A stretch of DNA of 64,000 nucleotides from Thermodesulfovibrionia bacterium (GTDB taxonomy: Bacteria > Nitrospirota > Thermodesulfovibrionia > UBA6902): assembly GCA_947259645.1 (NCBI GenBank), contig CAMYND010000009.1:7241-71240 (forward strand), written 5' to 3'. How positions within the stretch are numbered: the stretch's first letter is position 1; every line of letters starts with the position of its first letter. The notes under the pieces are model-generated. The model saw nothing but the letters and a program-made list of their open reading frames with translations, was not told the DNA's origin and searched no databases. A program made the translations under genes and the position numbers. Positions 295 to 57,381 of this stretch are shown piece by piece.

Positions 295-789
295 ATGATG
301 ATAATTACAAAAAAATATAGGTGCAAAGCGATTGTGCTTCTGCTGTTAACATTCAGTATGTCCTGTGCTACAGGAAACTTTCTGAAGACTGAGGTTATGA
401 CAGAACCTGACATCAAGGGAAACTACACGGTATTCCTCTATGATGAAGGCTGGCTGAAGAAAGTAGCTGTTCTGGATCTGGAAGGAGATGATTACGAATT
501 TCAGATACTGGGCAGCACACATAACTATAGCGTTACCAATAATGTTCCTGCTGATACAGCATTAAAGGAAAGTCTCATGTTCCTCAATACAATGCAGGTC
601 AAGCTGCGGAAGGTCCTCAGTGAAGAAGGAAGGGTGGTCGGTTATCAATTAACGCCTCAATTTCAGATAACCCGCTTTGGCACTGCGGAGATATTTGAAA
701 ACTATTACCGGGTGGACAACAGGAACGTTTATGTCTCAATCGGCCTGAAGCATTCTGTTGAAAAATCATATAAGAGAAGATTATATTGA
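295..789 (+). CDS. hypothetical secreted/lipoprotein
   Basis: 164-aa ORF with an N-terminal hydrophobic signal-like segment ending ...FSMSC. No recognisable catalytic motif. Confidence 0.4.
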   Translation: MMIITKKYRCKAIVLLLLTFSMSCATGNFLKTEVMTEPDIKGNYTVFLYDEGWLKKVAVLDLEGDDYEFQILGSTHNYSVTNNVPADTALKESLMFLNTMQVKLRKVLSEEGRVVGYQLTPQFQITRFGTAEIFENYYRVDNRNVYVSIGLKHSVEKSYKRRLY

Positions 790-10044: not shown

Positions 10045-11034
10045 TCAACCGTTCGGTATGCCGTGGCCTGAGGTGGTCGACAGAACAACATCCAGGCAGA
10101 GTGCCGGTGTCAGCTCGTTCTTATAGTTATTAATGAAATGAGATACTTCCGCATCTATTTTAATGTCCATTGAGTTTGCAAAAAAAGTCTTGTCATGGAC
10201 CCCGGGGAAACGGTGTGATGCCATTTCGATTTCCGGATCTATCGGCATGTGACAGTCCTGACATCTCTTATCGCCGCCCAGATTGGTTTTGTAGTTTTCC
10301 AGATAACTTGTATAGAGAGTGCGGCATTGCCAGAAGGGCACGCTGTCAGGGCATCCGTGATGACACCTGGCGCAGTACTTGGATTTCTTCAGGAACTCTG
10401 ACTTGAGGGTCTGGTTAATGCCCTTTACATTTTCTCTATGGTTACTCTGGTCAACTTCTCCCGACGGTCCATAGATAGCATCTGCATGAGGTTTATTGGC
10501 CCAGTATCCGTCCTGTAATGCGAACATGTTATGGCATCCATAGCAGCCAAGGTTCAGTTTTGAAAGCTCCTTTTTCGCAGCTTCCCTTTTGCCTTTGTCC
10601 GGGTTATCAACGGATTCAATGATCTTATCAGTGATCTCCGCGACAAGCTCATCAGTAGCGTGTTTTATTCGGGGCTCGTGGCACCAGAGACAGTGGCTCT
10701 TGATGGACATCTTGGTCAGCTTCGATCCATCCCAGTCCGGTTTTGTTTCTTTTTCCAGTCCCTGTTTGATAAAGGTCCGCCATGTCTGCAGAACCCTCTC
10801 TGTGCTGAAAGCGTGGGATTTTCCTGATTGCTTCCACTGTTCATAAATTTCTTCATGACATTCACCGCACTGTTCCGAATTATACAGAGCCGCCATTTCG
10901 TCAATAGTAGAAACCAGTGGCACATTGTCAGGCACTGTCGGGCCATGTGCGCGGGTCATTGATCCTGTAGCATGGGCTGACAGTGGCACAAGAACGAGTG
11001 AGATGAACATGCATGTTGTCAACAAAAATCTCAT
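10045..11034 (-). CDS. periplasmic multiheme c-type cytochrome (5 CxxCH)
   Basis: Signal peptide. Heme-binding motifs CGECH, CLWCH, CYGCH, CARCH and CQDCH. Confidence 0.8.
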   Translation of the reverse strand: MRFLLTTCMFISLVLVPLSAHATGSMTRAHGPTVPDNVPLVSTIDEMAALYNSEQCGECHEEIYEQWKQSGKSHAFSTERVLQTWRTFIKQGLEKETKPDWDGSKLTKMSIKSHCLWCHEPRIKHATDELVAEITDKIIESVDNPDKGKREAAKKELSKLNLGCYGCHNMFALQDGYWANKPHADAIYGPSGEVDQSNHRENVKGINQTLKSEFLKKSKYCARCHHGCPDSVPFWQCRTLYTSYLENYKTNLGGDKRCQDCHMPIDPEIEMASHRFPGVHDKTFFANSMDIKIDAEVSHFINNYKNELTPALCLDVVLSTTSGHGIPNG

Positions 11035-11354: not shown

Positions 11355-13376
11355 TTGAATCAATTGGAATTAATAACATATATATCAATAAATATATTCC
11401 TCTTTTCTTCCTGGTACGTTCTGCTGTTCAACGTGAGAGACAACCTTTCCTTCGTTGACCGGTTGATCGGGACATTTATATGCGGCTTGACTCAGATCAT
11501 AGCAACTCAAATGATGCTCGGGGTAGTATTCAGGTGGCTTTATCCTGCACCGCTCTTCATTCTTAACCTGTTATTATCAGCAGGAGTTATGTTCATTGCT
11601 TTCCGGTTCGGGAACAACAAAGGTATGTTCACGGAAATTCGGAATGCATTTGTCAGAATTTCAGGAATAATCATCAAAGACAAGGCACTGCTCTGTATAT
11701 TTTGCATGTTCGTTCTCTTATTCTGCTGGCTTGTCCTTACGGGTTACCTTTTTCCCTCCTATTCATGGGATGCCCTCTATTATCATCTCCCCATGGTCGG
11801 CCAGATTATGCAAAGCGGTGCTATCCAGGAACATTCCAACCCCTCATTTATTCAGCAGTATATGAATATCTTCTCAAAAAATATTAACCTTTTTTTCCTC
11901 TGGAATATCATATTTCTTAAAAGCGACAGAATAGTGGACCTGAGCCAGCTCTTTTTTGTCATCGCGGGAGTCCTTTCGATCTATAGCATGGCAATTAAGA
12001 TGAAAATACGGGAACAATACGCGCTGTACTGTTGTCTTCTTTTTTTCTTTACCCCTGTTCTTGTTCTGCAGGCAACAACAAATTATGTTGATGCTGCAGT
12101 CTCTATGCTTTTCCTTATCGCGGTTAACTTTCTGATATTTGACGAGCAAGGAAATAATACGGGAAAAAGCAGGGAATCGTTCCTGTTCGATGAGGGGAGA
12201 ATATCAGTTTTGTTGTCCGGGCTGGCAGGGGGGATATTGCTTGGGTCAAAGCCGACAGGGCCGTTTTATATTGTTGTTCTGTTCCTGGCGGTCTTTATCA
12301 GGGAAATGATGCAGCAGCGCGGACAATTTAGCTCTGCCTCCCCCGGTAAGGGCAATCTGATGATAAAGGGACTGCAGACGTATTTCTTTTGCTTTGTTCT
12401 GCCTGTTGTTCTCGGGGGAGGTTACTGGTATTTGAGGAACTGGATAGTTTACGGAAACCCGGTATATTACGTGGATGTGTCTATATTTAATGTTTCGATT
12501 TTTAAGGGCTTAGAAAAAAACTGGGTTGAGGCTGCTCCTCAAGCTATCGAGAACTTGAATTATGCAACAAGGCTTGTTCATGTATGGCTTGAGCGGGTCG
12601 GATATTACATGTATGACTCAAAGTTTAGCGGGTTTGGCCCTTTATGGTTTATTCTTTTTTTGCCAAGCATTCTATTTTCAGTGATCTATGGTGTTGCAAA
12701 AAAGAAAAATAATTTACTGTTTGTAATATTCGTGTTTCTTGTAGCTTTTGCCCTGTATCCACGAAACTGGATAACGAGGTACGTTATTTTTATTGTCGGT
12801 ATGGGGGCTCTCTCGTTCGGAATTGTACTGGAGTACTTTCATGAAAGAGAAAAGGGACTTAAATGTATTGCCCTGCTCCTGGCCGGATATGCCTTTATGA
12901 CAGCCAACTCCCCCTGCGTAATGCCCGGAAAAGTAAAGGAATTTATCTCTCTGCCTGCTGACGAGCGAACGCTGGCGAATCATAAGCCATTTAATATCGA
13001 TATCAAGGTCCGCCGGGAGTACGGGTACTGGATATGGATAAAGAACAATGTACTGAAAGGCGACACACTGGCATACACTTTTGAGACCTTTAAAATAGAG
13101 GCATTAAAGCCGGTCTTTACCGCCCCCCTCTGGAACAGTGAATTTTCAAACAAGGTCGTCTACCTGAAAAATGAAACATACAGTGAATGGGTGAAGGCAC
13201 TGACTATGGCTCAGGCTTCATATATTTTAATCAGAACAGGTTCCGCTGAAGATGTCTGGGTCGAAAAAGAAAGAAAAATTTATTACTCTCTGAGCTGGAT
13301 GGGCGGCCTGGTAGAAAAGTATAAAATTTTATATGCAGATGAACACTACAAAATAGTGCAGTTTAACAAAGGATAG
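11355..13376 (+). CDS. polytopic membrane protein, GT-C-like glycosyltransferase (ArnT/PMT family-like); start codon uncertain (TTG or an internal ATG)
   Basis: About 12 predicted TM segments in the N-terminal two-thirds and a soluble C-terminal domain. This is the GT-C (GT39/GT83) architecture. No catalytic motif confirmed. Confidence 0.35.
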   Translation: MNQLELITYISINIFLFSSWYVLLFNVRDNLSFVDRLIGTFICGLTQIIATQMMLGVVFRWLYPAPLFILNLLLSAGVMFIAFRFGNNKGMFTEIRNAFVRISGIIIKDKALLCIFCMFVLLFCWLVLTGYLFPSYSWDALYYHLPMVGQIMQSGAIQEHSNPSFIQQYMNIFSKNINLFFLWNIIFLKSDRIVDLSQLFFVIAGVLSIYSMAIKMKIREQYALYCCLLFFFTPVLVLQATTNYVDAAVSMLFLIAVNFLIFDEQGNNTGKSRESFLFDEGRISVLLSGLAGGILLGSKPTGPFYIVVLFLAVFIREMMQQRGQFSSASPGKGNLMIKGLQTYFFCFVLPVVLGGGYWYLRNWIVYGNPVYYVDVSIFNVSIFKGLEKNWVEAAPQAIENLNYATRLVHVWLERVGYYMYDSKFSGFGPLWFILFLPSILFSVIYGVAKKKNNLLFVIFVFLVAFALYPRNWITRYVIFIVGMGALSFGIVLEYFHEREKGLKCIALLLAGYAFMTANSPCVMPGKVKEFISLPADERTLANHKPFNIDIKVRREYGYWIWIKNNVLKGDTLAYTFETFKIEALKPVFTAPLWNSEFSNKVVYLKNETYSEWVKALTMAQASYILIRTGSAEDVWVEKERKIYYSLSWMGGLVEKYKILYADEHYKIVQFNKG

Positions 13377-17943: not shown

Positions 17944-18966
17944 ATGAATATGAAAAAAGCAGTCTGTTTGATCATCGGTATTTTTGTTTTCATCAGCTAC
18001 AGTTTCCCGGCCCATGCTGATGAAATAATTCTGGATAATGGTGACAGGATCAGCGGAACCGTAATCAACGCAAATGAAGTCCGCCTTACAATTGAGACCG
18101 GATATTCGGATCCTGTGAGCATTCAGCGAAGTAAAATAAAAAGGTTAAATACTGTTAACCCGGTTTCTGTGCATCTTTTAAGTGGTGAAATCCTCAAGGG
18201 CAGACTGAGTACGGATGCGGGCGGAAGTATTATTGTACAGTCAAGTGCTGACAGGGCTGATACAGCTGTTGCGTGGGAGAATGTATCGGCACTGAACCCT
18301 CCAGCGATCGAGCCGGTAAAGTGGAAGGGGAGTATTGCAGCGGGAGCCAACCTGCAGTCAGGAAATACTTCGCGTACAGCGGGATCGCTGAGCGCTGATG
18401 GTACACGCAAAACAGATCAGGACAGGTACAATCTGCGTTTCCAGTTTAACTATGCTGAGGAGGATGGTGAAAAGACTGTCAGGAACACATACGGGGCTTT
18501 GAAATATGATTATTTTTTAACGGAAAAACTGTACAGTTATTTGAGTATTGAGCTTCTGTCGGATGAATTCAAAGACCTCAACCTGCGTACAATAGTCGGG
18601 CCGGGCATCGGTTACCAGTACTGGGATGATTCTGTGAAGTTCCTTAATTTTGAGGCAGGGCTGGCCTATTTCTCAGAGGACCTTGATGAGGGAGTTGACG
18701 ACCAGTGGCTGTCATGCAGATTTGCAAGTACCTTTAAATGGAACATTACGGATTCAGTCTCTTTTTCGGATTATTTCGCGATCTACCCGAACTGCGAGGA
18801 CTTTGATAAATACCAGATACGTAATGAAGCAGGTCTGAATGTTGCGCTGGCATCGGACTGGTCCTTGAAACTGACGAATATTATTGAACACGACAGCAAA
18901 CCTCCCGTTACTGTGGAGAAGACTGATGTCTACTGGGTACTGGGCCTGCAGTATTCATTTTATTAA
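17944..18966 (+). CDS. outer-membrane protein, DUF481 (YdiY-like)
   Basis: Signal peptide. N-terminal DxIxLxNGDRISG repeats. C-terminal beta-rich region ending in aromatic residues. Confidence 0.4.
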   Translation: MNMKKAVCLIIGIFVFISYSFPAHADEIILDNGDRISGTVINANEVRLTIETGYSDPVSIQRSKIKRLNTVNPVSVHLLSGEILKGRLSTDAGGSIIVQSSADRADTAVAWENVSALNPPAIEPVKWKGSIAAGANLQSGNTSRTAGSLSADGTRKTDQDRYNLRFQFNYAEEDGEKTVRNTYGALKYDYFLTEKLYSYLSIELLSDEFKDLNLRTIVGPGIGYQYWDDSVKFLNFEAGLAYFSEDLDEGVDDQWLSCRFASTFKWNITDSVSFSDYFAIYPNCEDFDKYQIRNEAGLNVALASDWSLKLTNIIEHDSKPPVTVEKTDVYWVLGLQYSFY

Positions 18967-19063: not shown

Positions 19064-19441
19064 ATGAAAGAAAAAGAGTTCCCCTGGGGGAAACTCCTGA
19101 GCCATGCCATTGAAAAGGCCAGGAGAGAAGAAAAGCTTATCTTTGCTTATTTTTACCGAAGGAGCTGAGAAGCCTGCAGGAGAATGGAAACAGGTACGTT
19201 TCCTAACGTTGAACTGCAGGAATATATTGAAAACCACTTTGTGCCCGTGAAATACATATCAGGTCCTGATGCCGATCAATTTTCCCGGTTCGCAGTCTCA
19301 GCAGAGCCCGCATTTATTGTGCTGGACAGCGAAGGAAATGAAGTGTATCGAAAGATAGGTTTCTTTGAAGCTGATCTGCTGATCAGTCAGCTTGAGAAAG
19401 CCCGAAAAAAGGCCGCCCACAGGGCCGGCAGTAATCTATAG
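19064..19441 (+). CDS. candidate thioredoxin-fold selenoprotein (UxxC redox motif); in-frame TGA at 19166-19168 read as Sec
   Basis: The ORF 19064-19165 (MKEKEFPWGKLLSHAIEKARREEKLIFAYFYRRS) and the track ORF 19184-19441 are in the same frame, split by one TGA. The joined sequence ...S-U-EACRRMETGTFPNVELQEYIENHFVPVKY mirrors the thioredoxin-like WCxxCxxME...TF...VPVK region, with Sec replacing the first Cys. A hairpin GGAAAC-AGGUAC-GUUUCC (19186-19203), flanked by a CUGCAG/CUGCAG lower stem, lies about 20 nt 3' of the UGA. Its apical loop contains GGU, as in a bacterial SECIS. Confidence 0.55.
19173..19218 (+). ncRNA. putative bacterial SECIS element (cis-acting mRNA structure)
   Basis: Lower stem CUGCAG (19173-19178) pairs with CUGCAG (19213-19218). 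Upper stem GGAAAC/GUUUCC carries the apical loop AGGUAC. It begins 5 nt after the UGA at 19166, and the apical GGU is about 25 nt downstream. Confidence 0.45.
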
Positions 19442-27740: not shown

Positions 27741-28811
27741 ATGATAATAGGTGTCCCCAGAGAAATTAAAGAGCATGAATATCGGGTCGGGATGGTTCCT
27801 GCAGGTGTCAGGCAGCTTACCGGAGCAGGTCATACTGTACTGGTGGAAAATTCCGCAGGTATGGGAAGCGGATTTTCTGACGGGCAATACCGGGAAGCAG
27901 GGGCAGAGCTACGGCCGAAAAAGGAGTTGTTCAAGGCATCGGAACTTATCGTAAAAGTCAAAGAGCCTGTTCCAGCAGAGTATGAATTATTTCAGCGGGG
28001 ACAGGCCTTGTTTACCTTTCTTCACCTCGCGTCAGCTCCGGAACTGGTCACCATGCTTCTGGAGAAAAAAATAACAGCTTTTGCCTATGAGACCCTTGAA
28101 CTCAATAACGAGCTTCCATTGCTTAAACCGATGAGTGAGGTTGCCGGGAAGATGGCGCCTGTAGTTGCCGCATATTACCTGCAGAAGACAAACGGCGGGC
28201 AGGGGCTTTTGATGACCGGTGCTGAAGGGGTCCCGCCGGCAAAGGTCCTTATCCTGGGTGCCGGAACAGTTGGTGCAAGCGCATTACAGGTCGCCTTTGG
28301 GATAGGCGCTGATGTCACGGTAATAAGCCGGGGCAGCCAGAAACTGGAACGCATAGATAAGCTCTACAACGGCAACGTCAGGGTCTTTACCCTTTCGCAG
28401 GAACGGTTAGAGCAGGAAGTGATTAATACTGATGTTTTAATCGGCGCGGTTCTTGTAACCGGCGCAAAGGCCCCGAAACTCGTTTCCCGGGAGCTGGTTT
28501 CCCGGATGATCAAAGGATCGGTCATCGTGGATGTCTCAGTTGATCAGGGAGGGTGCGTGGAGACAACAAGACCTGCAACACATAATGATCCGGTTTATTC
28601 TGTAGATGGAGTAGTACATTACACGGTGGCGAACATGCCAGGGGCATATCCCAAAACATCTACCATGGCTCTTACTTCACAAACACTCAAGTATATACAG
28701 CTACTAGCCGAAAAAGGTATTAATGGCGCTTCAAAAACAGCGCCGCTTAAAAGTGCCATGAATACGAGTAATGGTGAAATAAAACACAGGGCTGTATCAG
28801 CATCACTGTGA
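27741..28811 (+). CDS. ald: alanine dehydrogenase
   Basis: IIGVPREIKEHEYRVGMVPAGV N-terminus. NAD-binding LILGAGTVG motif. Confidence 0.85.
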   Translation: MIIGVPREIKEHEYRVGMVPAGVRQLTGAGHTVLVENSAGMGSGFSDGQYREAGAELRPKKELFKASELIVKVKEPVPAEYELFQRGQALFTFLHLASAPELVTMLLEKKITAFAYETLELNNELPLLKPMSEVAGKMAPVVAAYYLQKTNGGQGLLMTGAEGVPPAKVLILGAGTVGASALQVAFGIGADVTVISRGSQKLERIDKLYNGNVRVFTLSQERLEQEVINTDVLIGAVLVTGAKAPKLVSRELVSRMIKGSVIVDVSVDQGGCVETTRPATHNDPVYSVDGVVHYTVANMPGAYPKTSTMALTSQTLKYIQLLAEKGINGASKTAPLKSAMNTSNGEIKHRAVSASL

Positions 28812-28876
28812 AGCCGGTCTCAGTATCAAGAATATGCCCGGCTGATCAAGACGTGAAACGGCAAGGAGGATTTAGT

Positions 28877-29716
28877 TTGAAAACCAAAAATGTCATACGA
28901 ACGAATGGATCGGTTCTTTTTCTCTGTTTGTTATTAATAACCGGGTCTGTTCATGCCGGTAATTTGATTCTTGACGGCCATGGCGGCTATGGCGTTATTA
29001 ATTACAAGGAAGATACCTCTTCCGGCGTTAAAACAGAGGCGACATCAACGCTGAAAACAGTCTATTTCGGCGGGTCAGGGGAGTACTCCTTTAACAAGCC
29101 TGAAAACTATTATGCGGGTATTGCAGCTGACTGGGCAATTGGCGTGGAAGATGGTGAGACCTGGACTAAAGACGGAACACAGGTTCAGACCAATGATATA
29201 AAAATATTCGGTCAGTTTTATGATCTCAGATTCGGGTATAAAGACAGCATGGAAAAGTTCTCATACGGGATTTATCTATCAGGAGGCTGGGACGGGATGT
29301 ATTTTGACAGAGACAATTTTGTTGAAAGTGGTATTCCCAGCTCAGGGGCCATTACTGAGGAATTTAGTCTCTGGAGAGCAGGGGGCGGCATAAAGGCTGG
29401 ATATGAATTCGGCCAATGGACAGCCGAGGGTTTGATCTCATTTGCCTATTACACCGATGCGAAGGTTGAGAACAGCAAGTACCCCGGCTTTAAATTTGAC
29501 ACTGAAGGAGTGCGCCTGGACCTGGAACTTGGTGCAAAACGTTCCTTGTTTGATAATTTAAGTCTCTACCTCGGGGGGTTGTACAGATCTATACAGCTTG
29601 ACGAAAGTCCTGTTTTCCGGGTAAGAGATCTGAACGGGATATTGGATAATGTGAAGTTCCCGCACAGCAAGACGCAGATCATCGCCGCCAAAGTGGTTGT
29701 GGCCTATGCCTTTTAA
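28877..29716 (+). CDS. putative outer-membrane beta-barrel protein
   Basis: TTG start with an AAGGAGGA RBS. Signal peptide. Alternating amphipathic strands, C-terminal ...VVVAYAF. Confidence 0.4.
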   Translation: MKTKNVIRTNGSVLFLCLLLITGSVHAGNLILDGHGGYGVINYKEDTSSGVKTEATSTLKTVYFGGSGEYSFNKPENYYAGIAADWAIGVEDGETWTKDGTQVQTNDIKIFGQFYDLRFGYKDSMEKFSYGIYLSGGWDGMYFDRDNFVESGIPSSGAITEEFSLWRAGGGIKAGYEFGQWTAEGLISFAYYTDAKVENSKYPGFKFDTEGVRLDLELGAKRSLFDNLSLYLGGLYRSIQLDESPVFRVRDLNGILDNVKFPHSKTQIIAAKVVVAYAF

Positions 29717-37499: not shown

Positions 37500-37751
37500 T
37501 CTGCACTGAACACTAGCAACTATCAGATATGGTGCAAACTCCCTGCATGACTTCTTCAGCTTATTTGTCATCCTCCGACGCGATCGGGGGATCCAGTAAG
37601 TTATAGTGAAAAATAGATTCCCCGATTAATTCGGGGAATGACACCACGTTTAATATTCATAAACGAGTCAAAGCGCTGCCTTCAGAAATTGTGCCATCAG
37701 TCGTTAACGTGTAAAATAGGAGCAAACGAATCAGGAAAGAATATAAATACA

Positions 37752-39362
37752 ATGAAATCTCATGACAAGATGAATTTGGAGAATGCACTAAATTTTGACA
37801 ACAAATATACCCGGGAGCTTCCGGCAGACCCCGAAACCTCTCATGAGACACGGCAGGTTACGAACTCATGTTATTCCAGAGTCCAGCCAGTAAAGGCAGG
37901 AGCCCCTGAGTTAGTGGCTTTCTCCAGAGAGATGGCCGAAGAAGTAGGCCTTTCCTCTGAGCTCTGTGAGTCTGAGGAATTTGTGGAGGTTTTTTCAGGC
38001 AATAAGGTTTTATCCGGTATGGATCCCTATGCCACCTGTTATGGTGGGCACCAGTTTGGCAGCTGGGCCGGCCAGCTCGGGGATGGTCGTGTTATTAACC
38101 TGGGAGAGATAGTAAATAAAGAGGGAAGAAGGTGGGTGCTTCAGCTTAAGGGTGCCGGCCCTACTCCCTACTCAAGAAGGGGAGATGGTTTTGCGGTATT
38201 ACGATCATCGATTCGTGAGTTTCTCTGTAGCGAGGCCATGTATCACCTCGGGATCCCTACGACGAGAGCATTAAGTCTTGTAACCACCGGAGATCAGGTG
38301 ATCAGGGATATGTTTTATGATGGTAACCCTCAGCCAGAGCCTGGAGCGATTGTCTGTCGAACAGCGCCATCATTTACACGATTCGGTAATTTCGAGATTC
38401 TTACCTGGAGAGGAGAACTGGATCTGCTGCGCCGCTTCGCCGATTACACGATACGTACTGACTTCCCGCACCTGGGTGAGCCATCAAAGGAAGTATATTG
38501 TGCATGGTTTGATGAGATCTGTACATCAACAGCAGAGATGATCGTGCACTGGCAGCGTACAGGTTTTGTGCATGGAGTAATGAATACAGATAACATGTCT
38601 ATTCTGGGACTCACTATCGACTTTGGTCCCTATGGATGGCTCGAGGATTATGATCCGGGCTGGACACCCAATACTACGGATGCACAGGGCCGCAGATACC
38701 GATTTGGCAACCAGGCCGAGATTGCACAGTGGAATCTTATCCAGCTTGCAAACGCAATTCATCCCTTAATTGGTGAGGTTCAGCCTCTGGAGGACTCGAT
38801 ACAGACCTATGTAAATCATCATCGTGATACCTGGCAAAGAATGATGGCAGATAAATTAGGGCTTGCCGGTTTCAATAAAGAGAGTGACAATAAACTGATC
38901 ACGGATATGCAGGATCTGCTTCAGTATGTTGAAACAGACATGACTATATTCTTTCGCAGACTGGCAGCGCTTGATGTACAGAGCACTGTTGCGCGTAGTT
39001 CATCTGTCCATAACCTTATAGAGCATTTCTCTGATGCCTATTATCTGTCAGAGCAGTTAAATGATGAATATATAGTCATGCTTGATACATGGATAACGCA
39101 CTACAAGGCACGGCTGAATCATGACAAGACCCCGGATGATCTGCGCAGGGTAAAGATGAATAAAGTAAATCCTGAATATATCTTCAGGAACTATATCGCG
39201 CAGCTCGCAATCGACAAAGCGGAAAAAGGGGATTACTCTATGGTGAATGAATTGCTTGAGGTACTGAGGAAACCCTATGATGAACAGACTGGCAAAGAAG
39301 AGCTTTCAAAAAGACGTCCTGAATGGGCGCGCCATCGCGCAGGTTGCGCTATGCTATCCTGA
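37752..39362 (+). CDS. selO: protein adenylyltransferase SelO (YdiU/UPF0061 family)
   Basis: FDNKYTRELP N-terminus. YATCYGGHQFGSWAGQLGDGR, LKGAGPTPYSRRGDG, FNYGV (MNTDNMSILGLTIDFGPYGW) and C-terminal motifs are typical of SelO. Confidence 0.85.
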   Translation: MKSHDKMNLENALNFDNKYTRELPADPETSHETRQVTNSCYSRVQPVKAGAPELVAFSREMAEEVGLSSELCESEEFVEVFSGNKVLSGMDPYATCYGGHQFGSWAGQLGDGRVINLGEIVNKEGRRWVLQLKGAGPTPYSRRGDGFAVLRSSIREFLCSEAMYHLGIPTTRALSLVTTGDQVIRDMFYDGNPQPEPGAIVCRTAPSFTRFGNFEILTWRGELDLLRRFADYTIRTDFPHLGEPSKEVYCAWFDEICTSTAEMIVHWQRTGFVHGVMNTDNMSILGLTIDFGPYGWLEDYDPGWTPNTTDAQGRRYRFGNQAEIAQWNLIQLANAIHPLIGEVQPLEDSIQTYVNHHRDTWQRMMADKLGLAGFNKESDNKLITDMQDLLQYVETDMTIFFRRLAALDVQSTVARSSSVHNLIEHFSDAYYLSEQLNDEYIVMLDTWITHYKARLNHDKTPDDLRRVKMNKVNPEYIFRNYIAQLAIDKAEKGDYSMVNELLEVLRKPYDEQTGKEELSKRRPEWARHRAGCAMLS

Positions 39363-41341: not shown

Positions 41342-41609
41342 TAAAATTATATTAGATGATCCTGCGCATTACATGCAGTAGCCAAAAAAGCGATTACATA
41401 TTCTGTAAACAGATTTCCTGACTCAGTATAGCTCAATGTCACATATCAAAGCTCAAATGCCAAATGAATGTCAAAATCTTAAGTTTTGATCAGACAAAGA
41501 CTAATAATAACGTGTAACATATGTGCCTGGATCGTACCGGGATGTGACATCTCTAATTCGTGAACAAGCTGGGGGCCACACAACAAATTATGTTGAAGGA
41601 GATAACATT

Positions 41610-43010
41610 ATGAAAAAGTTACTAATACTAACACTGTTGATCATTATAGTAATTGTAAGTCCGGTAATGGCACAGGAAGTTAAACAAATATTGAATGTTT
41701 CGGAGTTTGCAAACATAATTGACCAAACAGTGCCAGTGTTTGTTGACAGTGTTCCAACAAGGGAAGATGACTGGTACCACGGACGTCCCAAATATTCTCG
41801 CTTTTTACGCTTTAAAACGTTGAAAATGGCGTTTGGTGACGGCAATCCTGACAAAAAACATTTTAGGACAATGATGAGTGATTTGGGAATCACCAATGAC
41901 GACCACGTAGTATTATATGGTGCCAGGGGTGAAATTCCATATCATTTTGGAGCGTTTTACTTAATGAAATATTTCGGACACGAAAAGGTGAGCGTTTTAG
42001 ACGGTGGATTGTCCGAGTGGAGAGAGACGCAGCCAATTACAACTGAAGAAGTTACTGTTCAAAAAACTGAATACAAAGTTAAAGTGATGAATAGGAAAAT
42101 CCTCGCAGATGCTATCGATGTGTGGAGCAAGAGGTGGGATCCACATACTGCAATCATTGACGCAAGACTGCCGGAAGAAGTCAGTGGTTCCCTTGTTTTT
42201 GATGAGAATAAAAGGTCCGGTAGAATAGAATTATCTGTTAATGTTAACTGGTATGACCTGTTTAAGCCGAACGGGACCTTTAAAGAAGAATCAGAATTGC
42301 TGCAAAAGTTTGAAGATAAGGGCATCGGCAAGGACGATAACAGCATCGTCTACAGTCAGGCTGGGTACCGGGCGAGTGGTACGTATTTTGTGCTCACCCT
42401 GCTTGGTTTTCAGAATGTTAGAAACTATAGCGCAAGTTTTGTGGACTGGGCAAACCAGGAAAACAAAAAGAAGTATGCAGTCGTAGGGCCAGCATATTAT
42501 GTAGGTGGTAAAACGTGCAAGAAGTGTCACCGAAAACAGTACTTGTCATGGGCAAAGACCAAGATGGCGGTGAACTTCAATAACCTTAAACCAGGAGTTA
42601 AGGCAGACGCAAAAAAGAAGGTCGGCCTTGAACCGGAAAAGGATTACACCAATGATGAGAACTGTTTACCATGCCACACAACCGGGTACGGAAAACCAGG
42701 CGGTTTTGTAAGCCTAAAAGAAACGCCTGGATTAATAAACGTCCAGTGTGAGGGGTGTCATGGTCCTGGAAGCACATATGTGAAGCTAATGAAGGAAGGA
42801 AAGACAAAATGGGAAGAAGCAGGGTACACTGATGAACAGCTCAAGACAACTGGTTTAATAATTCCTGAAGAAAACGAACAGGGATGCATGGCATGCCACG
42901 GAGGTGATAGTCCATTTAACGAAAAAGTGGACTCAAAATACAATTGGAACTGGCCGGAAAGAGTACAAAAAACTCACAAACACTTCCCGCTCAAGTACAA
43001 AATAAAGTAA
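41610..43010 (+). CDS. periplasmic tandem rhodanese-like domains fused to a C-terminal tetraheme c-type cytochrome
   Basis: Signal peptide with an AAGGAG-type RBS. Two rhodanese-like modules (...VSVLDGGLSEW... and ...IVYSQAGYRASGTY...FVDW). The second active-site loop has Ser where the catalytic Cys is expected. Four CxxCH motifs follow (CKKCH, CLPCH, CEGCH, CMACH). Confidence 0.6.
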   Translation: MKKLLILTLLIIIVIVSPVMAQEVKQILNVSEFANIIDQTVPVFVDSVPTREDDWYHGRPKYSRFLRFKTLKMAFGDGNPDKKHFRTMMSDLGITNDDHVVLYGARGEIPYHFGAFYLMKYFGHEKVSVLDGGLSEWRETQPITTEEVTVQKTEYKVKVMNRKILADAIDVWSKRWDPHTAIIDARLPEEVSGSLVFDENKRSGRIELSVNVNWYDLFKPNGTFKEESELLQKFEDKGIGKDDNSIVYSQAGYRASGTYFVLTLLGFQNVRNYSASFVDWANQENKKKYAVVGPAYYVGGKTCKKCHRKQYLSWAKTKMAVNFNNLKPGVKADAKKKVGLEPEKDYTNDENCLPCHTTGYGKPGGFVSLKETPGLINVQCEGCHGPGSTYVKLMKEGKTKWEEAGYTDEQLKTTGLIIPEENEQGCMACHGGDSPFNEKVDSKYNWNWPERVQKTHKHFPLKYKIK

Positions 43011-43681
43011 ACCCAAGCCGGTGGTGCGATCAGTTGGTGTTGTGCTTGAACCAATAAGTACGATGCTTTTTATTGCGGGGAGCACTCTCATCATAGGAAA
43101 AGCTATATGAGAAAAATTCAAATTATTAAATTCAATAACTTCTCGAATCATTAATAAACAGGTGAAGTCGTCAATCTGAAACCATCATCAATCTTACAGA
43201 TTACATGATATTTCCAACTTGGTTTATTCTATATATTTTCTGAGAACTATTGTAATAAGTCAACAATCTTCCCTTTGCCAGGTTTTTATTCAGAATCCCC
43301 TCATATCAATGAGCTGTCATTAAAGGAAGCATTGAACATTACAATCGTTAATATATGACAATTGGCATTTTATTCTTGAAGTTTACCTATTAATGCACTA
43401 ATATCAAGAGCAAAGTATTTTTTCAATCTAGCATTCACGTGTAGATAATTAATCTCCCTTAACTAAAATAGCGTTACCAAACTACACAAAAAAAGGTCGT
43501 GCTATACCGATGCACTTATTATTATGATAGACTGCATAGTAATTATTACTTAATTAAGGATTTTTAAAATTAGTATTATTTGTCGTTCAGTCTAATCAAC
43601 TGTTATATGAAAAATAAAAAGACGATAGTATTATTAATATTGGAAGCTTTATTAGTATCGTTCTGCTTTACAGTTATTATC

Positions 43682-43719
43682 GGTATAATTAATGCCAGGT
43701 GGTATAATTAATGCCAGGT
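43682..43719 (+). repeat. 19-bp perfect tandem direct repeat (ggtataattaatgccaggt x2) upstream of the CaCA gene
   Basis: Copies at 43682-43700 and 43701-43719. Each carries a TATAAT box. Confidence 0.7.
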
Positions 43720-43741
43720 TATTTTTAAAACCAAAAGTCAT

Positions 43742-44776
43742 ATGATATCGAATATTCTTCTCCTGGTTATAGGCCTCGTGATGCTGGTCAAGGGCTCTGA
43801 TTTTTTCATTAATGCAGCTTCCCGGATTGCAAAGCGGCTTGGAATATCAGAGTTCGTGATAGGCCTCACACTTGTCGCAGTTGGCACCTCACTGCCTGAA
43901 CTGGTCTCTGCCATTTTCGCATCGTTTCAGCATGAAAGCGGGCTGATAATGGGGAATATAGTGGGTGCTGATATAGCCAATCTCTCCCTCATTATAGGTA
44001 TTGCCGCCATGATAGCGGCAATAAGGACAGACACGGAGATGCTGGAACGTGATGGATATTTTATCCTTGCAGTGGCGGTCCTTCTCATTGTATTCATGTT
44101 CAACGGGACTATTTCACGTATAGAAGGTGGCTTCTTCATCGCTGTATTTATCGCATATACTATCTTTCTGTTCGAGACAAAGCCAGAGTTCAAAGGCCGG
44201 TTTGGATTTGTAAAGTTCACAAAATATTTCATTCAGTTTGGGTATTTCGGTACACTAAGAGGGATAATCAAAGGGGCCCCGCAATTAAAGGAAGAGGCCG
44301 TTCCTGTTCAGGTTTCTGGAAGCACTGCGAAGGACCTTGGGATAATCATTGCAAGCGGCACCCTGGTAATATTCGGCGCGAAATTCCTTGTTGATAATGC
44401 CATATACTTCGCTAAACTGTTTGAGGTCCCGGCAGCTGTCCTGGGTATACTGATAGCGATAGGGACTACCCTGCCTGAGATGAGCGTGGGCATAAGCGCT
44501 GCAAGAAAGGGGCTGGGGAATATAGTCATTGGGAATGCCGTAGGTTCGTGCATAACCAATACACTGCTGATATTGGGGGTATCTTCTCTCATCTATCCTC
44601 TTAAGGTTGACGCCATTTCCCTGAAGATTACCGCTCCGACTTTTATATTTCTAGTACTTATCACTCTTGTCTTTATCAAGAGTGATTGGGAATTAAGAAA
44701 AAGAGAAGGAATAGTGCTATTGATATTCTATCTATGCTTCATAATTATAATGCTTACCTTCGGGGCATCACTATAG
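43742..44776 (+). CDS. Na+/Ca2+ exchanger family (CaCA, YrbG-like) membrane protein
   Basis: Two alpha-repeat signatures: GSDFFINAASRIAKRLGISEFVIGLTLVAVGTSLPE and GNAVGSCITNTLLILG. Confidence 0.75.
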   Translation: MISNILLLVIGLVMLVKGSDFFINAASRIAKRLGISEFVIGLTLVAVGTSLPELVSAIFASFQHESGLIMGNIVGADIANLSLIIGIAAMIAAIRTDTEMLERDGYFILAVAVLLIVFMFNGTISRIEGGFFIAVFIAYTIFLFETKPEFKGRFGFVKFTKYFIQFGYFGTLRGIIKGAPQLKEEAVPVQVSGSTAKDLGIIIASGTLVIFGAKFLVDNAIYFAKLFEVPAAVLGILIAIGTTLPEMSVGISAARKGLGNIVIGNAVGSCITNTLLILGVSSLIYPLKVDAISLKITAPTFIFLVLITLVFIKSDWELRKREGIVLLIFYLCFIIIMLTFGASL

Positions 44777-44989: not shown

Positions 44990-45469
44990 ATGACTGCATT
45001 GTGCAAGAGTGACTTAATTATGGAGAATAACAATATGCCTAATTCAGATCAAACGTCCAATTCAAACTGGACTATTCTTTTTATATGTTGGCTGATAGCC
45101 AGTATCTCTGCGCTGGGGAGCCTTTTTTTTAGCGAAATAATGAATTTTGCTCCTTGTGTTTTGTGCTGGTATCAGAGAATTTGTTTATTCCCACTGGTTT
45201 TAATTTTATCAATGGGGCTCTTTCACTTTGATAAAAGCGTTGTCAGGTTTGCCCTTCCCTTAGCTTTAATAGGATGGTTTATCGCGTTTTACCACAACCT
45301 TCTTTATTCCGGGATTATTCCAGAAAGCATACAACCCTGCAGTCAGGGTGTTTCATGCACAGAGGACTACATCAACTTGTTTGGCATTTTCACAATTCCT
45401 ATGTTAGCCTTAATATCATTTTCAGCAATAGCAATTTTATTATTTATGTTAAAGAGGAGACTTTCCTAA
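44990..45469 (+). CDS. dsbB: disulfide bond formation protein B (DsbB/BdbC family)
   Basis: Four TM segments. CVLCWYQRI CxxC in the first periplasmic loop and a second Cys pair (CSQGVSC). True start is probably an internal ATG (about 45020-45035). Confidence 0.65.
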   Translation: MTALCKSDLIMENNNMPNSDQTSNSNWTILFICWLIASISALGSLFFSEIMNFAPCVLCWYQRICLFPLVLILSMGLFHFDKSVVRFALPLALIGWFIAFYHNLLYSGIIPESIQPCSQGVSCTEDYINLFGIFTIPMLALISFSAIAILLFMLKRRLS

Positions 45470-46173
45470 TGAAAAAGAAAAAAACAAAGACAAAGCAAAA
45501 ATCAATAGAAAAGCAGAAGCCAGTAAACAAACGAAATATAGTTATCATTTCAGCGATCTGCCTGGCACTTATTTTTGTGCTTGGTAGCTATATCTACAAA
45601 TCCCAGCAAGCCACAAATCTAAGCTTTATGGCTAGAGAAAACGCTTCAACGTTTGTTAGAGAATATTCACAGACGCTCGGCAGTGATGACGCAAAAGTTT
45701 ATATCGTAGAATTTTTCGACCCGGCATGTGAAACCTGTAGAGACTTTTATCCTTTTGTTAAAAAACTCATGGCTGCCAACCCGGGGAAGATTAAACTCGT
45801 TATGAGATATGCCCCTTTTCATGATGGCTCAGATTATGTTGTAAAGATGCTTGAAGCTGCAAGAAAACAGGGAAGGTATTGGGAAACTTTGGAGGTTATG
45901 TATAAGTATCAACCTCACTGGGCAAGTCATCATAAGCCACAGCCTCAAGTATTATGGCAAGTTCTTCCAGAGGCAGGTCTGAATTTAGAACAAATTAAAA
46001 GTGATATGAATAGTCAAGAAATAGCTCAACTGATTAAACAAGACCTTACAGATACTAAAACTCTCAATGTCAGGAAAACGCCTGAGTTTTTCGTAAACGG
46101 GAAACCGCTTCCAAGCTTTGGTTACAACCAATTAAAAGAATTAGTAGAAGCTGAAATTCGGGCAAATTATTAA
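45469..46173 (+). CDS. DsbA-family thiol:disulfide oxidoreductase (BdbD-like), membrane-anchored
   Basis: ATG overlaps the dsbB stop (TAATG). Lys-rich N-terminus plus a TM anchor. Thioredoxin-fold CETC active site (FFDPACETCRDF). Confidence 0.7.
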   Translation: MKKKKTKTKQKSIEKQKPVNKRNIVIISAICLALIFVLGSYIYKSQQATNLSFMARENASTFVREYSQTLGSDDAKVYIVEFFDPACETCRDFYPFVKKLMAANPGKIKLVMRYAPFHDGSDYVVKMLEAARKQGRYWETLEVMYKYQPHWASHHKPQPQVLWQVLPEAGLNLEQIKSDMNSQEIAQLIKQDLTDTKTLNVRKTPEFFVNGKPLPSFGYNQLKELVEAEIRANY

Positions 46174-47428: not shown

Positions 47429-47698
47429 TTTTGGAAATATGATCGAACAAGGGCATGCACCGGACGGCTTTTAGCCGCCGGTGATGCCACCCGTTATTTC
47501 AAATGATAATTATCAATTCATCATTCACAACAGTTTATTGACAAGTAAGATAACTGTTTAAATATTATTTTCAAAAAACTGATGATTCACAAATGATATC
47601 CTGACCTTTCGTCCATCCTGTTTAGACTTCTCCGTATTCAAATTCTGCGATAAGATATTTATGCATACCCCTAAGACTGACATATGAGGAGGAGTATC

Positions 47699-48538
47699 AT
47701 GAATATTAAGGAAGCAATAAGCACAATCAGTGACCATCAAAGTGCAAATCTAAAACACCGATCAATATACAGCTACAACTATATATTGAATCGCTTCGAG
47801 TCTCAATTCGGAAATCGTTCAGTAGAATCCATTGGCTCAGATGAGATAGGTCAGTTTTTGGAGAACCTAACAAGTGGTCTCTCCAAGGCTACACGCAGGT
47901 TGAGATTCTCACAGCTGAAGACATTCTTTAACTTTACCATTGATCATTTTGACCTCAACATTAAAAATCCATGTTCTTCATCAAAGATCTCAAGGTCATT
48001 CAAAGCCCCGGTACAGGTGTCGAGAAAGATTCTTGAGAAGGAAACCGTAGATGAGATGATATATAACACAGGCAATGTCCGAGACCGATTGCTCTTGGAA
48101 TTACAAGCACGACGTGGTTTAAGAATTGGTGAATTGTTAAAACTGAGGGTTTCCGATGTGTCAGAAAGGAAACTCACTATTATTGAGCCGAAGTCTCGCA
48201 AGGATTCAGAAGTTGCTTTTATGCCTGAACAGATCGCAAACAGGTTGCACGACTACATTAAAGAGAAACAGCTTTCTCCTGATGAATCGATATTCCCCAT
48301 TTGTTATTCAACAGCCAGGTCAATAATAATTCATCTTGCAAAAAGACTAAATATCAAAATGACCCCTCATGATCTTAGGAGACACTCTGCGACATATGCC
48401 AGTCGAAATGGTGTTCCTTTGGAAATTGTGTCTAAAGTCATTCTCAGGCACCGGGACCTTAAAACAACACAAATCTATCTGGGGAGGGTAAGCGACCCGG
48501 AAGCAATACGCTGGATGGATATATTGCATGGCAAATAG
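47699..48538 (+). mobile_element. tyrosine-type site-specific recombinase/integrase (phage-integrase family) CDS
   Basis: RBS GAGGAGG before ATG 47699. C-terminal HDLRRHSATYASRNGVPLEIVSKVILRHRDLKTTQIYL carries the R...HxxR...Y catalytic residues. Confidence 0.8.
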
Positions 48539-48843
48539 AATAAAGTTAACTTATTGATTTACAACAATAACCAACAGTCTTTCGGGTATGCTTTTTCTCT
48601 TAAATAAGGAACACTTTCCCCTCTTATAAATGAGCTCGATCATTTCAGAAAGGGCTTGATTTCTTTCGGAAAGAGAGATTTTTTCTATTTTTTCAAATTT
48701 TATGACTACGGCATGAAAGTGAGCTTTTGAAAACACTATTTTTTCGGGAATTATAACTTTAAATAACGGAATCGTGCTATTAGCTTCATCTGATATTTAA
48801 TGAGTTGATTTATTAAGTCATATTAAAATAATATAAATCTATA

Positions 48844-49038
48844 ATGATGCTCAGGATTAAAAAGAGTTATGTGACTGTCCTTATTTTCTTCATCGTCGTT
48901 GTACTGCATTCCCCGGTCTATCATCAGCATATTGATGATTATCATCCCGAGACAACAAAGCATAATGATAATGTTGCACCCCATGCTCCCAATGATTATT
49001 CTGTTAATTCTCATGATTCAATAATAGAGCTATGCTAA
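48844..49038 (+). CDS. small His-rich membrane protein, hypothetical (possible metal-binding)
   Basis: 64-aa ORF: one TM segment, then HSPVYHQHIDDYHPETTKHNDNVAPHAP. Sits upstream of the HupE/UreJ gene. Confidence 0.25.
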   Translation: MMLRIKKSYVTVLIFFIVVVLHSPVYHQHIDDYHPETTKHNDNVAPHAPNDYSVNSHDSIIELC

Positions 49039-49233
49039 AACTTTTTCAGGACTTTCTCCCCCCATTTATTCAACGTAGGAAAAATTAACACGAGCTGTTT
49101 ATACCTGATACCGGCATGTTCCACAACTGAGAACATTGCCTGGCATTGAATCATGCGGCATAAGGGTGATATGTTCATCGGGTTTATCAGCTTGGGACAG
49201 AATAAAATAATCAATAATATAGGAGTCAATTAC

Positions 49234-54932: not shown

Positions 54933-56782
54933 TATTTGTCACCTCCCTCTTTAACTGCCGAGACAGGTTTTTCTTTCCGGATGGCCGGCTTTACCTCAAT
55001 TGAGGCGAATTTGCAGGTGTCATAGCATGACCTGCACTGTATGCACAGTTCCTGAATGATCCTGTGGGCCTTTTTCTTTTCTCCGACGATGGCTTCCTGC
55101 GGACATGCCCGCAGGCAGGCACCGCATCCCTTGCACAGTTCTTCGGAAATATGAAATGAGCAGAGGTCGCTGCATATTCCTGCTTCACACCAATGATCTT
55201 TAATGTGTGCTTCATATTCATGTTTGAAATATCGTATCGTGGAAAGGACGGGATTCGGGGCTGTCTGGCCGAGTCCGCAAAGAGATGTACTGATAATGTC
55301 CCTGCTCAGGTCTTCAAGCTTTTCAATATCGCCTTCCTGTCCTCTGCCCTCTGTTATGTCGGTGAGCATATCGAGCATTACTCTTGTTCCGACGCGGCAG
55401 GGGGTGCATTTCCCGCATGATTCATCGGCGGTAAACTCAAGAAAAAACTTTGCCGTGCTCACCATGCAAGTGTCTTCGTCCATTACTACCATTCCTCCTG
55501 AACCCATGATAGCACCGGTCTTGACAATGTCTTCGTAGGTTACGGGGATGTCGATATGGTCCTCGGGGATACAGCCTCCTGAGGGGCCGCCCATTTGCAC
55601 GGACTTGAACTTTTTCTTTTTGTTTGTCATCCCGCCACCGATATCATAGATAATCGTTTTCAGAGGGGTTCCCATGGGGACTTCGACGAGCCCGACGTTT
55701 TTTATATCCCCTGTAAGGGCAAATACCTTTGTGCCGGTACTCTTTTCAGTCCCCAGTGACTTGTACCATTCAGCCCCGTTCAGGATGGTTGGGGCTATCT
55801 GTGCCAGGGTCTCAACGTTGTTCAGGACTGATGGCTTGTCCCACAGGCCCTTATGGGCAGGGAAGGGAGGACGTGGTCTTGGCATACCGCGCTTTCCTTC
55901 AATGGAACGCATCAGCGCTGTTTCTTCACCGCATACAAATGCCCCTGCACCCAGGTATATTTCAAGGTCAAAGTTAAATCCGCTTCCCAAAATGTTTTCA
56001 CCAAGAAGACCATTCTCACGACAAAGCTTAATCGCTGTTTCAAGCCTCGCTACTGCCAGCGGATACTCGGCTCTGACGTAGATTACGCCTTTGCTCGCGC
56101 CTATCGCCTTTGCGCCGATTAACATGCCTTCGATTACTGAGTGGGGATCAGATTCCATAACAGACCTGTCCATGAATGCCCCGGGGTCACCTTCGTCACC
56201 GTTGCACAGCATGAACTTCTGGTCAGCTACTGACTTTGAGGCGAACTCCCACTTTAACCCTGTCGGGAAACCTGCTCCTCCCCGTCCCCTGATTCCTGCG
56301 TCTTTAATAGTCTGTATTATATCTTCCGGGGTCATTTCCGTTAAGGCCTTACCAGCAGCCATATACCCGTCTCGTGCGATGTACTCATCCAGGCTGTCAG
56401 GATCAATGAGCCCCTTATTCCTCAGGACCCTCAATACCTGGTGCTTGAAGAACGGGATATCATTCATTAATGGAATGGCTGCCCTCTTCTCAGGGTCCTT
56501 GAACATCAGTTTTTCATAGGGCCGGCCTTTCAGGAAGTGCTCTTCAACAAGTTTCGGGACTTCCGCGACAGTCAATTTCTGATAAAAGATCTCTTCAGGG
56601 TACACCAGCATTACAGGCCCTTCAGCACAGAATCCGTTGCATCCGGTCAGCACGATCTTTACCTCGTCGGCAAGGCCCTGCTTTTCCAGCTCTTCCTGAA
56701 GGGCATCTTTAACCTTGGGGGTCCCGCTTGCAACGCATCCGGTCCCGGCACACATGAGTAAATTGGCACGATATTTTTCCAT
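54932..56782 (-). CDS. NuoF/HndC-like NAD(P)H-binding flavoprotein subunit with N-terminal thioredoxin-like 2Fe-2S domain and C-terminal 2x[4Fe-4S] ferredoxin domain
   Basis: GRGGAGFPTGLKWEF (FMN/NADH site). ESCGKCTPCRVGT (N3 cluster). CKGCGACLRACP and CIQCRSCYDTC ferredoxin motifs. N-terminal CAGTGC...C. Confidence 0.8.
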   Translation of the reverse strand: MEKYRANLLMCAGTGCVASGTPKVKDALQEELEKQGLADEVKIVLTGCNGFCAEGPVMLVYPEEIFYQKLTVAEVPKLVEEHFLKGRPYEKLMFKDPEKRAAIPLMNDIPFFKHQVLRVLRNKGLIDPDSLDEYIARDGYMAAGKALTEMTPEDIIQTIKDAGIRGRGGAGFPTGLKWEFASKSVADQKFMLCNGDEGDPGAFMDRSVMESDPHSVIEGMLIGAKAIGASKGVIYVRAEYPLAVARLETAIKLCRENGLLGENILGSGFNFDLEIYLGAGAFVCGEETALMRSIEGKRGMPRPRPPFPAHKGLWDKPSVLNNVETLAQIAPTILNGAEWYKSLGTEKSTGTKVFALTGDIKNVGLVEVPMGTPLKTIIYDIGGGMTNKKKKFKSVQMGGPSGGCIPEDHIDIPVTYEDIVKTGAIMGSGGMVVMDEDTCMVSTAKFFLEFTADESCGKCTPCRVGTRVMLDMLTDITEGRGQEGDIEKLEDLSRDIISTSLCGLGQTAPNPVLSTIRYFKHEYEAHIKDHWCEAGICSDLCSFHISEELCKGCGACLRACPQEAIVGEKKKAHRIIQELCIQCRSCYDTCKFASIEVKPAIRKEKPVSAVKEGGDK

Positions 56783-56913
56783 ATCTTTTCCCTCTATCTA
56801 TAAAGTAGTATTCTGATCCTCTGTTTTCTGAAAAATATCAATCTCCTGAATGTAATCAGGATAATAAACGTTGTGTATTGTTTTTGTCTTTACGCTGACA
56901 GCTGAAAGCTGAA

Positions 56914-57297: not shown

Positions 57298-57381
57298 TTG
57301 AGTCCTCCTGTTATTGCTGTGCCCGTTGTTTCAGTTACTAAAACGTGCATGAATCAGTAACACAGATTGCCGAACCTTTTA

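Follow-up and report, generated by a model that had tools for sequence, protein, structure and literature searches.

Does the TGA at positions 19166-19168 end a short open reading frame (ORF), or is it read as a codon for selenocysteine (Sec) within a longer gene? The question concerns one gene of the 64-kb stretch of DNA that was analysed, referred to here as the window. A mechanical ORF listing splits this gene into an upstream ORF of 37 amino acids (aa), beginning at a GTG at 19055, and an 85-aa ORF from the ATG at 19184. The 34 codons upstream of the TGA and the 85-aa ORF downstream of it lie in the same frame, as an earlier reading made from the letters of the window (the sequence-only reading) had stated, and the TGA is the sole internal stop of the resulting 125-codon frame. 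The joined product reads ...FAYFYRRS-U-EACRRMETGTFPNVELQEYIENHFVPVKY or, given to another extent around the UGA, ...FAYFYRRS-U-EACRRMETGTFPN.... The comparative evidence makes it very probable that the locus is one gene for a 125-residue cytoplasmic thioredoxin-fold oxidoreductase, in which Sec at the UGA replaces the attacking Cys and a hairpin just downstream serves as the selenocysteine insertion sequence (SECIS).

The position of the start Met is conserved among orthologs, which share the pattern M-x3-F/I-x-W-G at the N-terminus. The sequence-only reading had matched the region around the UGA to a (x)WCxxC-type pattern; the UxxC part of that match stands, and the Trp part falls away since no Trp precedes the motif, which leaves xUxxC. 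TGA is an ordinary stop in the window, where it terminates 13 of the 35 long ORFs, and a genome-wide reassignment of UGA is thereby excluded.

Further evidence comes from related loci, 70 in all. Their DNA was taken from single genomes of each species, from metagenomes, and through exact look-up of proteins. The 34 close protein relatives are bimodal in length, consisting of proteins of 121-128 aa that contain C-E-A-C and proteins of 83-95 aa that all start at the Met directly after the motif. The gene calls of relatives consist of a 33-aa stub followed by an ORF of ~85 aa. Among 67 motif-bearing loci, the UGA column holds TGA in 21 (17 of them distinct) and TGY, encoding Cys within C-x-x-C, in 46, while TAA and TAG occur in none. 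Two more divergent TGA forms (L078 and L079) emerged from a search of representative proteins, bringing the number of distinct Sec forms to 19. Alignment with Cys homologs, which the sequence-only reading had named as a check, places the first cysteine of CxxC at the UGA. Every TGA form keeps the upstream ~33 codons in frame, and these codons share homology with the N-termini of the Cys forms. The ratio of nonsynonymous to synonymous polymorphism (pN/pS) is 0.41 in the upstream stub and 0.23 downstream of the UGA, indicating purifying selection on both flanks.

The Sec and Cys forms also share a genomic setting. From 19.5 to 30 kb, the genes of the window follow the order seen in Sec-type as well as Cys-type loci, with amino-acid identities of 55-82%, and encode a 137-aa protein, an LPG_synthase_C-domain protein, DUF362/Fer4, MotB, MotA, rubrerythrin, a 163-aa ORF, PdxA, Ham1, AlaDH, and a menaquinone-biosynthesis (VitK2_biosynth) protein. 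The 163-aa ORF may be a homolog of RidA/L-PSP, as judged from synteny alone. This shared gene order identifies the Sec and Cys forms as orthologs at one chromosomal position. All 23 of the 23 genome-derived loci belong to metagenome-assembled genomes of Nitrospirota/Thermodesulfovibrionales. Sec forms are present in the metagenome-assembled genomes PIVU01, JACRPZ01, and JBDLIC01. Taxonomy and synteny together point to a Nitrospirota bacterium as the host and not to a deltaproteobacterium, the lineage that the sequence-only reading had brought in for proteins of this kind.

Downstream of the UGA, the message folds into a hairpin whose upper stem pairs GGAAAC with GUUUCC around the apical loop AGGUAC and whose outer stem pairs CCUGCAG with CUGCAGG. 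When positions 19160-19230 are folded, this hairpin is the minimum-free-energy structure (-19.7 kcal/mol, z = -2.86), and one of 200 shuffled sequences was as stable. The sequence-only reading had described this hairpin, with GGU in its apical loop, at 20 to 37 nucleotides (nt) downstream; folding bears out both the structure and the GGU, and the distance is right when counted from the U of the UGA. The loop itself starts 23 nt past the UGA. The published criteria for bacterial SECIS (bSECIS) elements comprise a loop of 3-9 nt, a stem of 4-16 bp, a G within the loop's first two positions, a distance of 16-37 nt between the UGA and the loop, and a minimum free energy of -7.5 kcal/mol or lower (PMC13188914). 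The element in the window lies within each of these limits, with a loop of 6 nt, a G at position 2, a stem of 6 bp, the spacing of 23 nt, and the folding energy given above. Such hairpins are not rare: of the window's TGAs, 105 are flanked by open frames on either side, and four of these are accompanied by a qualifying SECIS-like hairpin, the other three being antisense or out of frame to real genes. The hairpin by itself is weak evidence; it is its conservation that puts the case beyond chance.

Conservation was assessed by scanning the related loci for hairpins under the published bSECIS criteria, ungapped and at -5 kcal/mol or better. A qualifying hairpin is present in 17 of 17 Sec forms and in none of 42 distinct Cys forms; with the two divergent forms included, it is present in 19 of 19 Sec forms, so that the conservation of the hairpin among orthologs, a further check named by the sequence-only reading, came out in its favor. 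The consensus GGRRRC-AGGUAC-GUUUCY, with the loop 23 nt after the UGA, is found in all Sec forms, one of which (L065) has a G for the first loop A that permits a GGUA tetraloop. A search of 1.4 Mb of sequence found 21 copies of the core motif, all of them after these TGAs. Pairing in the upper stem is 100% over six pairs in a 15-sequence alignment, in which three pairs vary and only by A-to-G or G-to-A changes opposite U. In the two divergent forms the outermost C is a U, which turns Pro into Leu and retains a G.U pair; here the structure is kept at the expense of the peptide. The lower CUGCAG stem, which the sequence-only reading had counted as part of the element, is rejected as a conserved part of it and is largely specific to the window. 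In orthologs the lower helix is paired in 72% of alignment cells and the middle helix in 49%, and RNAalifold retains the 6-bp helix only, so the extension does not help to define the element.

Because the hairpin also codes for the peptide M-E-T-G-T-F-P, synonymous sites were used to ask whether conservation of the peptide explains that of the RNA. Within the hairpin, the third positions of three consecutive codons (Gly-GGU, Thr-ACG, and Phe-UUU) are invariant in 15 of 15 sequences. Outside the hairpin, the gene has 50 conserved degenerate codons; the third base varies in every one of them, with a mean entropy of 1.13 bits. The mean pairwise nucleotide identity of this set of sequences is 68%. 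The synonymous invariance inside the hairpin, set against its complete lack elsewhere, identifies selection on the RNA.

The relationship between the two forms is informative as to their history. In a neighbor-joining tree, all Sec forms fall in one clade, within which a single Cys form (L075, encoding the protein P0002) is nested. This nested form, the closest of the Cys forms, keeps GGU and GUUUCC as remnants, and its hairpin is broken. The nesting of a single Cys form with a decayed hairpin inside the Sec clade suggests that Sec arose once from Cys and reverted at least once, and L075 is probably a Sec-to-Cys revertant. In this gene (L075:10001-10366) the relic reads AUGGCAGAAGGUGUGUUUCC, with two of the six pairs broken. 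The locus derives from the same metagenome sample (ERZ24794648) as a Sec-form locus (L066).

The protein was assigned to a fold by several routes. When Cys is put for the stop, Pfam reports Thioredoxin_2 (PF13098, 31.4 bits), Thioredox_DsbH (PF03190, 31.0), and Thioredoxin_7 (PF13899, 29.9), all above the gathering threshold of 27; these matches are marginal yet concordant. By sequence, the nearest protein of solved structure is the putative disulphide isomerase 2KUC (phmmer E = 1.7e-9), whose WCGPC aligns to S-U-EAC and thus places the UGA at the first Cys of the motif. Structure was modelled on P0002, a Cys form that is 68% identical and the closest natural full-length homolog, as a stand-in for the window protein. 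The AlphaFold2 model (predicted local distance difference test score, pLDDT, of 92.7) has a thioredoxin fold in which a strand at residues 24-30 is followed by Cys34 and a helix at residues 35-44, the classical thioredoxin active-site geometry. Foldseek returned 365 PDB matches at E <= 0.001 with this model, thioredoxin-fold proteins leading, and the nearest were 3F9U, DsbH (2JU5), DsbD-gamma (1UC7 and 1VRS), and 2KUC, with template-modelling (TM) scores of 0.73-0.81. A basic C-terminal helix, LEKARKKAAHR, is conserved in many family members. The N-terminus, MKEKEFPWGKLLSHAIEKARREEK, is hydrophilic and by reading of the sequence has no hydrophobic signal sequence, so the window protein is probably cytoplasmic. 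Sequence and model together predict that the protein is stand-alone, has a thioredoxin fold, and bears Sec where CxxC has its N-terminal, nucleophilic Cys.

The family is small, with 34 close matches in 5.8 billion proteins. A search of 1.84 billion proteins gave 35 representatives at E <= 1e-10, with a profile that kept 86 positions only, was dominated by truncated Sec forms, and says little on the N-terminal region; beyond these representatives the family merges into multidomain Thioredoxin_7-like proteins. One of the proteins from this search (P0043, 119 aa) has C-S-A-S in place of CxxC, a monothiol active-site variant. No selenoprotein label is found among the few protein-search matches that bear a name from their source. 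No NCBIfam model, selenoprotein or other, reached its cutoff for the window protein; TsoB comes nearest, through its C-terminal domain (30.1 bits, where the cutoff is 805), and DsbD, VPGUxxT, DsbH, and Trx7/PDZ come next. The window protein and two Cys homologs all scored far under cutoff in the NCBIfam selenoprotein families that are curated (TsoB, VPGUxxT, Trx7/PDZ, PDO_seleno_TRX, and others).

The locus is a single gene with Sec and Cys orthologs at one syntenic position and at one catalytic site, in which the TGA and the hairpin occur together and selection acts on the RNA. By analogy with established bacterial Sec decoding, the 18-nt hairpin inside the coding sequence would act as a SECIS during translation. 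SelB with GTP and Sec-tRNA(Sec) would bind the GGU-containing apical loop and, in competition with release factor 2 (RF2), bring Sec to the UGA while it occupies the A site of the ribosome. The protein would alternate between two states, selenol/thiol and selenenylsulfide (Sec35-Cys38), in the role of a thiol-disulfide oxidoreductase. That the host uses Sec is suggested only at the level of its lineage, by the complete selA/B/C/D set reported in Thermodesulfovibrio genomes (PMC5389517) and by the selB-selC genes reported in groundwater Nitrospirae (PMC8124441).

Several observations weigh against a Sec-decoded gene. Neither the 64-kb window nor ~700 kb from related loci yielded selA, selB, selD, or tRNA-Sec. 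A tRNA scan of the window detected none and hence no selC there, a scan of 25 related loci detected no tRNA-Sec, and a Pfam scan of 40 window ORFs, including all of at least 245 aa, detected no SelA, SelB, or SelD. The genome being several Mb in size, the missing sel genes in the window and related loci are uninformative. The stem shows no pair in which both sides have changed in compensation; its support consists of one-sided, pair-preserving changes and synonymous invariance. A shuffle control of the whole 16-pair structure was not significant, because the lower helices are poorly conserved, and Rfam at gathering thresholds gave no match across the whole window. The spacing of 23 nt between the UGA and the loop compares with 17 nt in the Escherichia coli fdhF element, and is 6 nt longer though in the published range.

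When E. coli SelA, SelB, and SelD were used as tblastn queries, the window and all loci together gave one match, in L008, which proved to be TypA/BipA and not SelB. Scans of the window for TGA-split ORFs and for TGAs with hairpins found nothing credible as a second selenoprotein gene.

Three other accounts of the locus have to be weighed against a selenoprotein gene. The TGA could be a disabling nonsense mutation in a former Cys-type gene, now a pseudogene or truncated gene whose downstream part is not made in the same protein, and the public gene calls of 83-95 aa and the lack of Sec machinery in the window are on the side of such an account. Decay of this kind is at odds with a stop that lies at the same column in 19 distinct orthologs, visibly divergent ones included, and is TGA in every case, that falls exactly on the catalytic Cys, and that is flanked on both sides by in-frame sequence under purifying selection. 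The co-occurrence of hairpin and TGA (19 of 19 Sec forms, 0 of 42 Cys forms) stands against it as well. The case that the sequence-only reading had made against a pseudogene is strengthened by these observations, and the comparative data have effectively refuted the pseudogene already, leaving it extremely improbable. We give equally little credence to a gene with two products, in which function is confined to the 85-aa ORF from ATG 19184, a thioredoxin-like fragment devoid of the active site, and the hairpin regulates its translation instead of recoding the UGA. The residue in question, Met41, is invariant in 15 aligned Sec forms, an AGGAG lies just upstream of the ATG in the window, and the hairpin overlaps the first codons of the 85-aa ORF. 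The AGGAG is, however, 1 nt from the ATG and absent from most orthologs, and a gap of 1 nt is too short for Shine-Dalgarno spacing. A product of 85 aa would be missing strand beta1 and all of the redox motif. Purifying selection acts on the upstream 33 codons, which have their homologs in the N-termini of Cys forms, and the Cys forms share the Met but have no hairpin.

The remaining account accepts SECIS-dependent recoding and differs in the amino acid inserted: a selC* tRNA-Cys, which resembles tRNA-Sec and has a UCA anticodon, would be the main or a conditional decoder of the UGA, via SelB or a paralog, giving an ordinary CxxC protein. It has precedents, as selC* tRNA-Cys genes are reported in Thermodesulfovibrio and in contigs that are probably from Nitrospirae, and a deltaproteobacterial selC* tRNA-Cys(UCA) translated the opal Sec codon as Cys in E. 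coli (PMC5389517). In the window and related loci, however, no selC* gene or any tRNA was found, and all selC*-containing genomes are reported to have the full Sec apparatus (PMC5389517), so Sec would be the default. A costly UGA and SECIS are also kept in 19 lineages although a one-base change gives Cys, as in L075, which argues that Sec is selected. Recoding to Cys is accordingly judged unlikely, if not to the degree of the pseudogene and the two-product gene, and a Sec-containing protein is preferred.

The annotation of the family in public data is systematically affected by the internal UGA. At least 19 distinct orthologs are stored as fragments of 83-95 aa without the active site, often beside a spurious 33-aa ORF, and a family model with a Sec exception would correct these truncated annotations. 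More tentatively, and with some doubt on our part, these proteins could make up a stand-alone, DsbD-gamma/DsbH-like UxxC family that is not yet catalogued and that is confined to Nitrospirota among the named loci. The SECIS would then fix the peptide M-E/G-T/A-G-T-F-P/L in every Sec form, and the Cys clade, the Sec clade, and the revertant would make up a natural series of SECIS gain and loss. As a more speculative addition to this reading, selenium supply may determine whether the UGA is decoded as Sec or as Cys, through the selC* tRNA-Cys reported for the lineage. The gene adds a lineage-restricted redox selenoprotein to the Nitrospirota/Thermodesulfovibrionales, anaerobes of groundwater and sediment, and implies a dependence of Sec-form carriers on selenium. 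No new mechanism is revealed. The locus provides a well-sampled case in which an RNA structure determines the protein sequence and in which Sec and Cys replace each other at one orthologous position.

Coordinates of the selenoprotein gene and of the elements within it, numbered from the first letter of the window
Feature	Position	Strand	Details
Selenoprotein gene, 125 codons	19064..19441	+	ATG 19064 to TAG 19439-19441, one frame
In-frame UGA read as selenocysteine (very probable), residue 35	19166..19168	+	TGA column in 19 distinct orthologs, TGY elsewhere
Redox motif U-E-A-C (UxxC)	19166..19177	+	aligned with C-E-A-C of full-length homologs and WCGPC of PDB 2KUC
Conserved core of the candidate bacterial SECIS	19186..19203	+	6-bp stem 19186-19191/19198-19203, loop AGGUAC 19192-19197
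Extended hairpin as folded in the window	19173..19220	+	lower stem 19173-19179/19214-19220 and a 3-bp middle helix

The neighborhood of the gene varies among relatives. In five of them (L063, L065, L069, L072, and L078), an operon of LemA, TPM_phosphatase, and a 248-aa protein lies on the opposite strand directly downstream of the selenoprotein gene; the window is without this operon. Directly upstream in the window is a DUF481 outer-membrane-type gene (17944-18966, + strand) that has no counterpart in any fetched locus, and some relatives have an AsmA-like gene upstream. The AsmA-like gene and the LemA-TPM-248-aa operon show no clear functional link to the selenoprotein gene. Within the N-terminal coding region, the near-palindrome AAGAGTTCCCC-TGG-GGGAAACTCCT at 19074-19098 encodes EFPWGKLL and was flagged by a scanner as a minus-strand terminator-like hairpin.

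Other features of the window are listed here as observations in their own right. An unbroken 574-aa homolog of the SelO/YdiU family of protein adenylyltransferases is encoded at 37638-39362 (+ strand; Pfam SelO E = 2e-127, NCBIfam YdiU above cutoff) and has no in-frame TGA; the prokaryotic selenoproteins in a 2026 catalogue include a 'Selenoprotein O-like protein' (PMC13188914). A cluster at 52476-58254 (- strand) encodes an 818-aa NuoG/FdhA-like molybdopterin oxidoreductase (Fdh-alpha 467 bits, NuoG 456, both below cutoff), a 616-aa Nuo51-like subunit binding flavin mononucleotide (FMN) and Fe-S, and a 290-aa fusion of a response-regulator receiver (REC) with a NuoE-type [2Fe-2S] thioredoxin-like ferredoxin. 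The ORF of the molybdoenzyme is unbroken, so it is not a Sec form, and a REC-NuoE fusion is unusual. A second receiver-domain fusion, of 254 aa and joined to a glycine-cleavage H-protein-like (lipoyl/GCV_H) domain, is located at 58427-59191 (- strand). A 495-aa protein with tandem rhodanese and cytochrome c554/c7-type multihaem domains is encoded at 41523-43010 (+ strand). At 44990-46173 (+ strand), a DsbA/Thioredoxin_4-like ORF of 299 aa (45274-46173) overlaps a 159-aa ORF (44990-45469) in a different frame. A gene of the tyrosine recombinase/phage-integrase family is present at 47684-48538 (+ strand) with no tRNA nearby, and the larger stretches without a long ORF, 43010-43742 and 48538-49153, flank this integrase region. 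Four ORFs have no Pfam match at E <= 1e-5: 295-789 (+ strand, 164 aa), 10045-11034 (- strand, 329 aa), 11355-13376 (+ strand, 673 aa), and 28808-29716 (+ strand, 302 aa).

Comparison with known systems places the gene among familiar ones. A point of reference for the RNA element is the verified SECIS of E. coli fdhF, a hairpin bound by SelB, the sequence of which was confirmed against >5,400 genomes. Both elements are hairpins within the coding sequence 3' of the UGA, and both have a hexaloop that starts with AGGU and is closed by a C-G pair (GC-AGGUCU-GC in fdhF, AC-AGGUAC-GU here). They differ in that the conserved stem here has only 6 bp and no bulged U, and in that the lower stem is not conserved.

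For the protein, the best structural and sequence matches are the DsbD-gamma, DsbH, and CcdA-associated domains (1UC7, 2JU5, 3F9U, and 2KUC); in the match to 2KUC the CxxC motifs are aligned. Such domains are generally periplasmic or exported, have Cys active sites, and are often fused to membrane modules. The window protein differs from them in having Sec instead of Cys, and has no recognizable signal peptide, as judged by reading its sequence, or partner domain. In NCBIfam, DsbD (25.4 bits against a cutoff of 330) and DsbH (19.3 against 190) are top matches that stay below the threshold for membership. Classical thioredoxin is more distant: the window protein is of ~125 aa with a domain nearer to DsbD-gamma/DsbH/Thioredoxin_7, and TIGR01068 scores 17 bits against a cutoff of 96.8. 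The selenoprotein families TsoB (NF045694), VPGUxxT (NF041383), and Trx7/PDZ (NF041199) have weak local similarity to the window protein over the thioredoxin-like domain (E of 1e-7 to 1e-3). Their scores of 18-30 bits compare with cutoffs of 275-805, and these families are multidomain proteins of 287-572 aa with the motifs UxxxxU, VPGU, and CxxU.

UxxC selenoproteins with a thioredoxin fold, Cys orthologs, and an in-frame SECIS are established, and the 2026 catalogue, which lists dozens of families, includes Sec-containing thioredoxin (PF00085), glutaredoxin, and a 'thiol:disulfide interchange protein' with a UxxC motif (PF13098; WP_011366075.1) (PMC13188914). The last of these, a Geobacter family, is likened to the window protein by its Pfam label and UxxC motif only, and its name is absent from the few source-named matches of the protein searches (34 close relatives and 35 representatives). 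With bacterial UxxC selenoproteins as a group, the window protein has in common the thioredoxin fold, Sec as the N-terminal residue of CxxC, Cys orthologs, a SECIS just 3' of the UGA, and the PF13098 label. The gene is a genuine and well-supported selenoprotein gene with an ordinary mechanism, and possibly represents an uncatalogued subfamily of a known kind.

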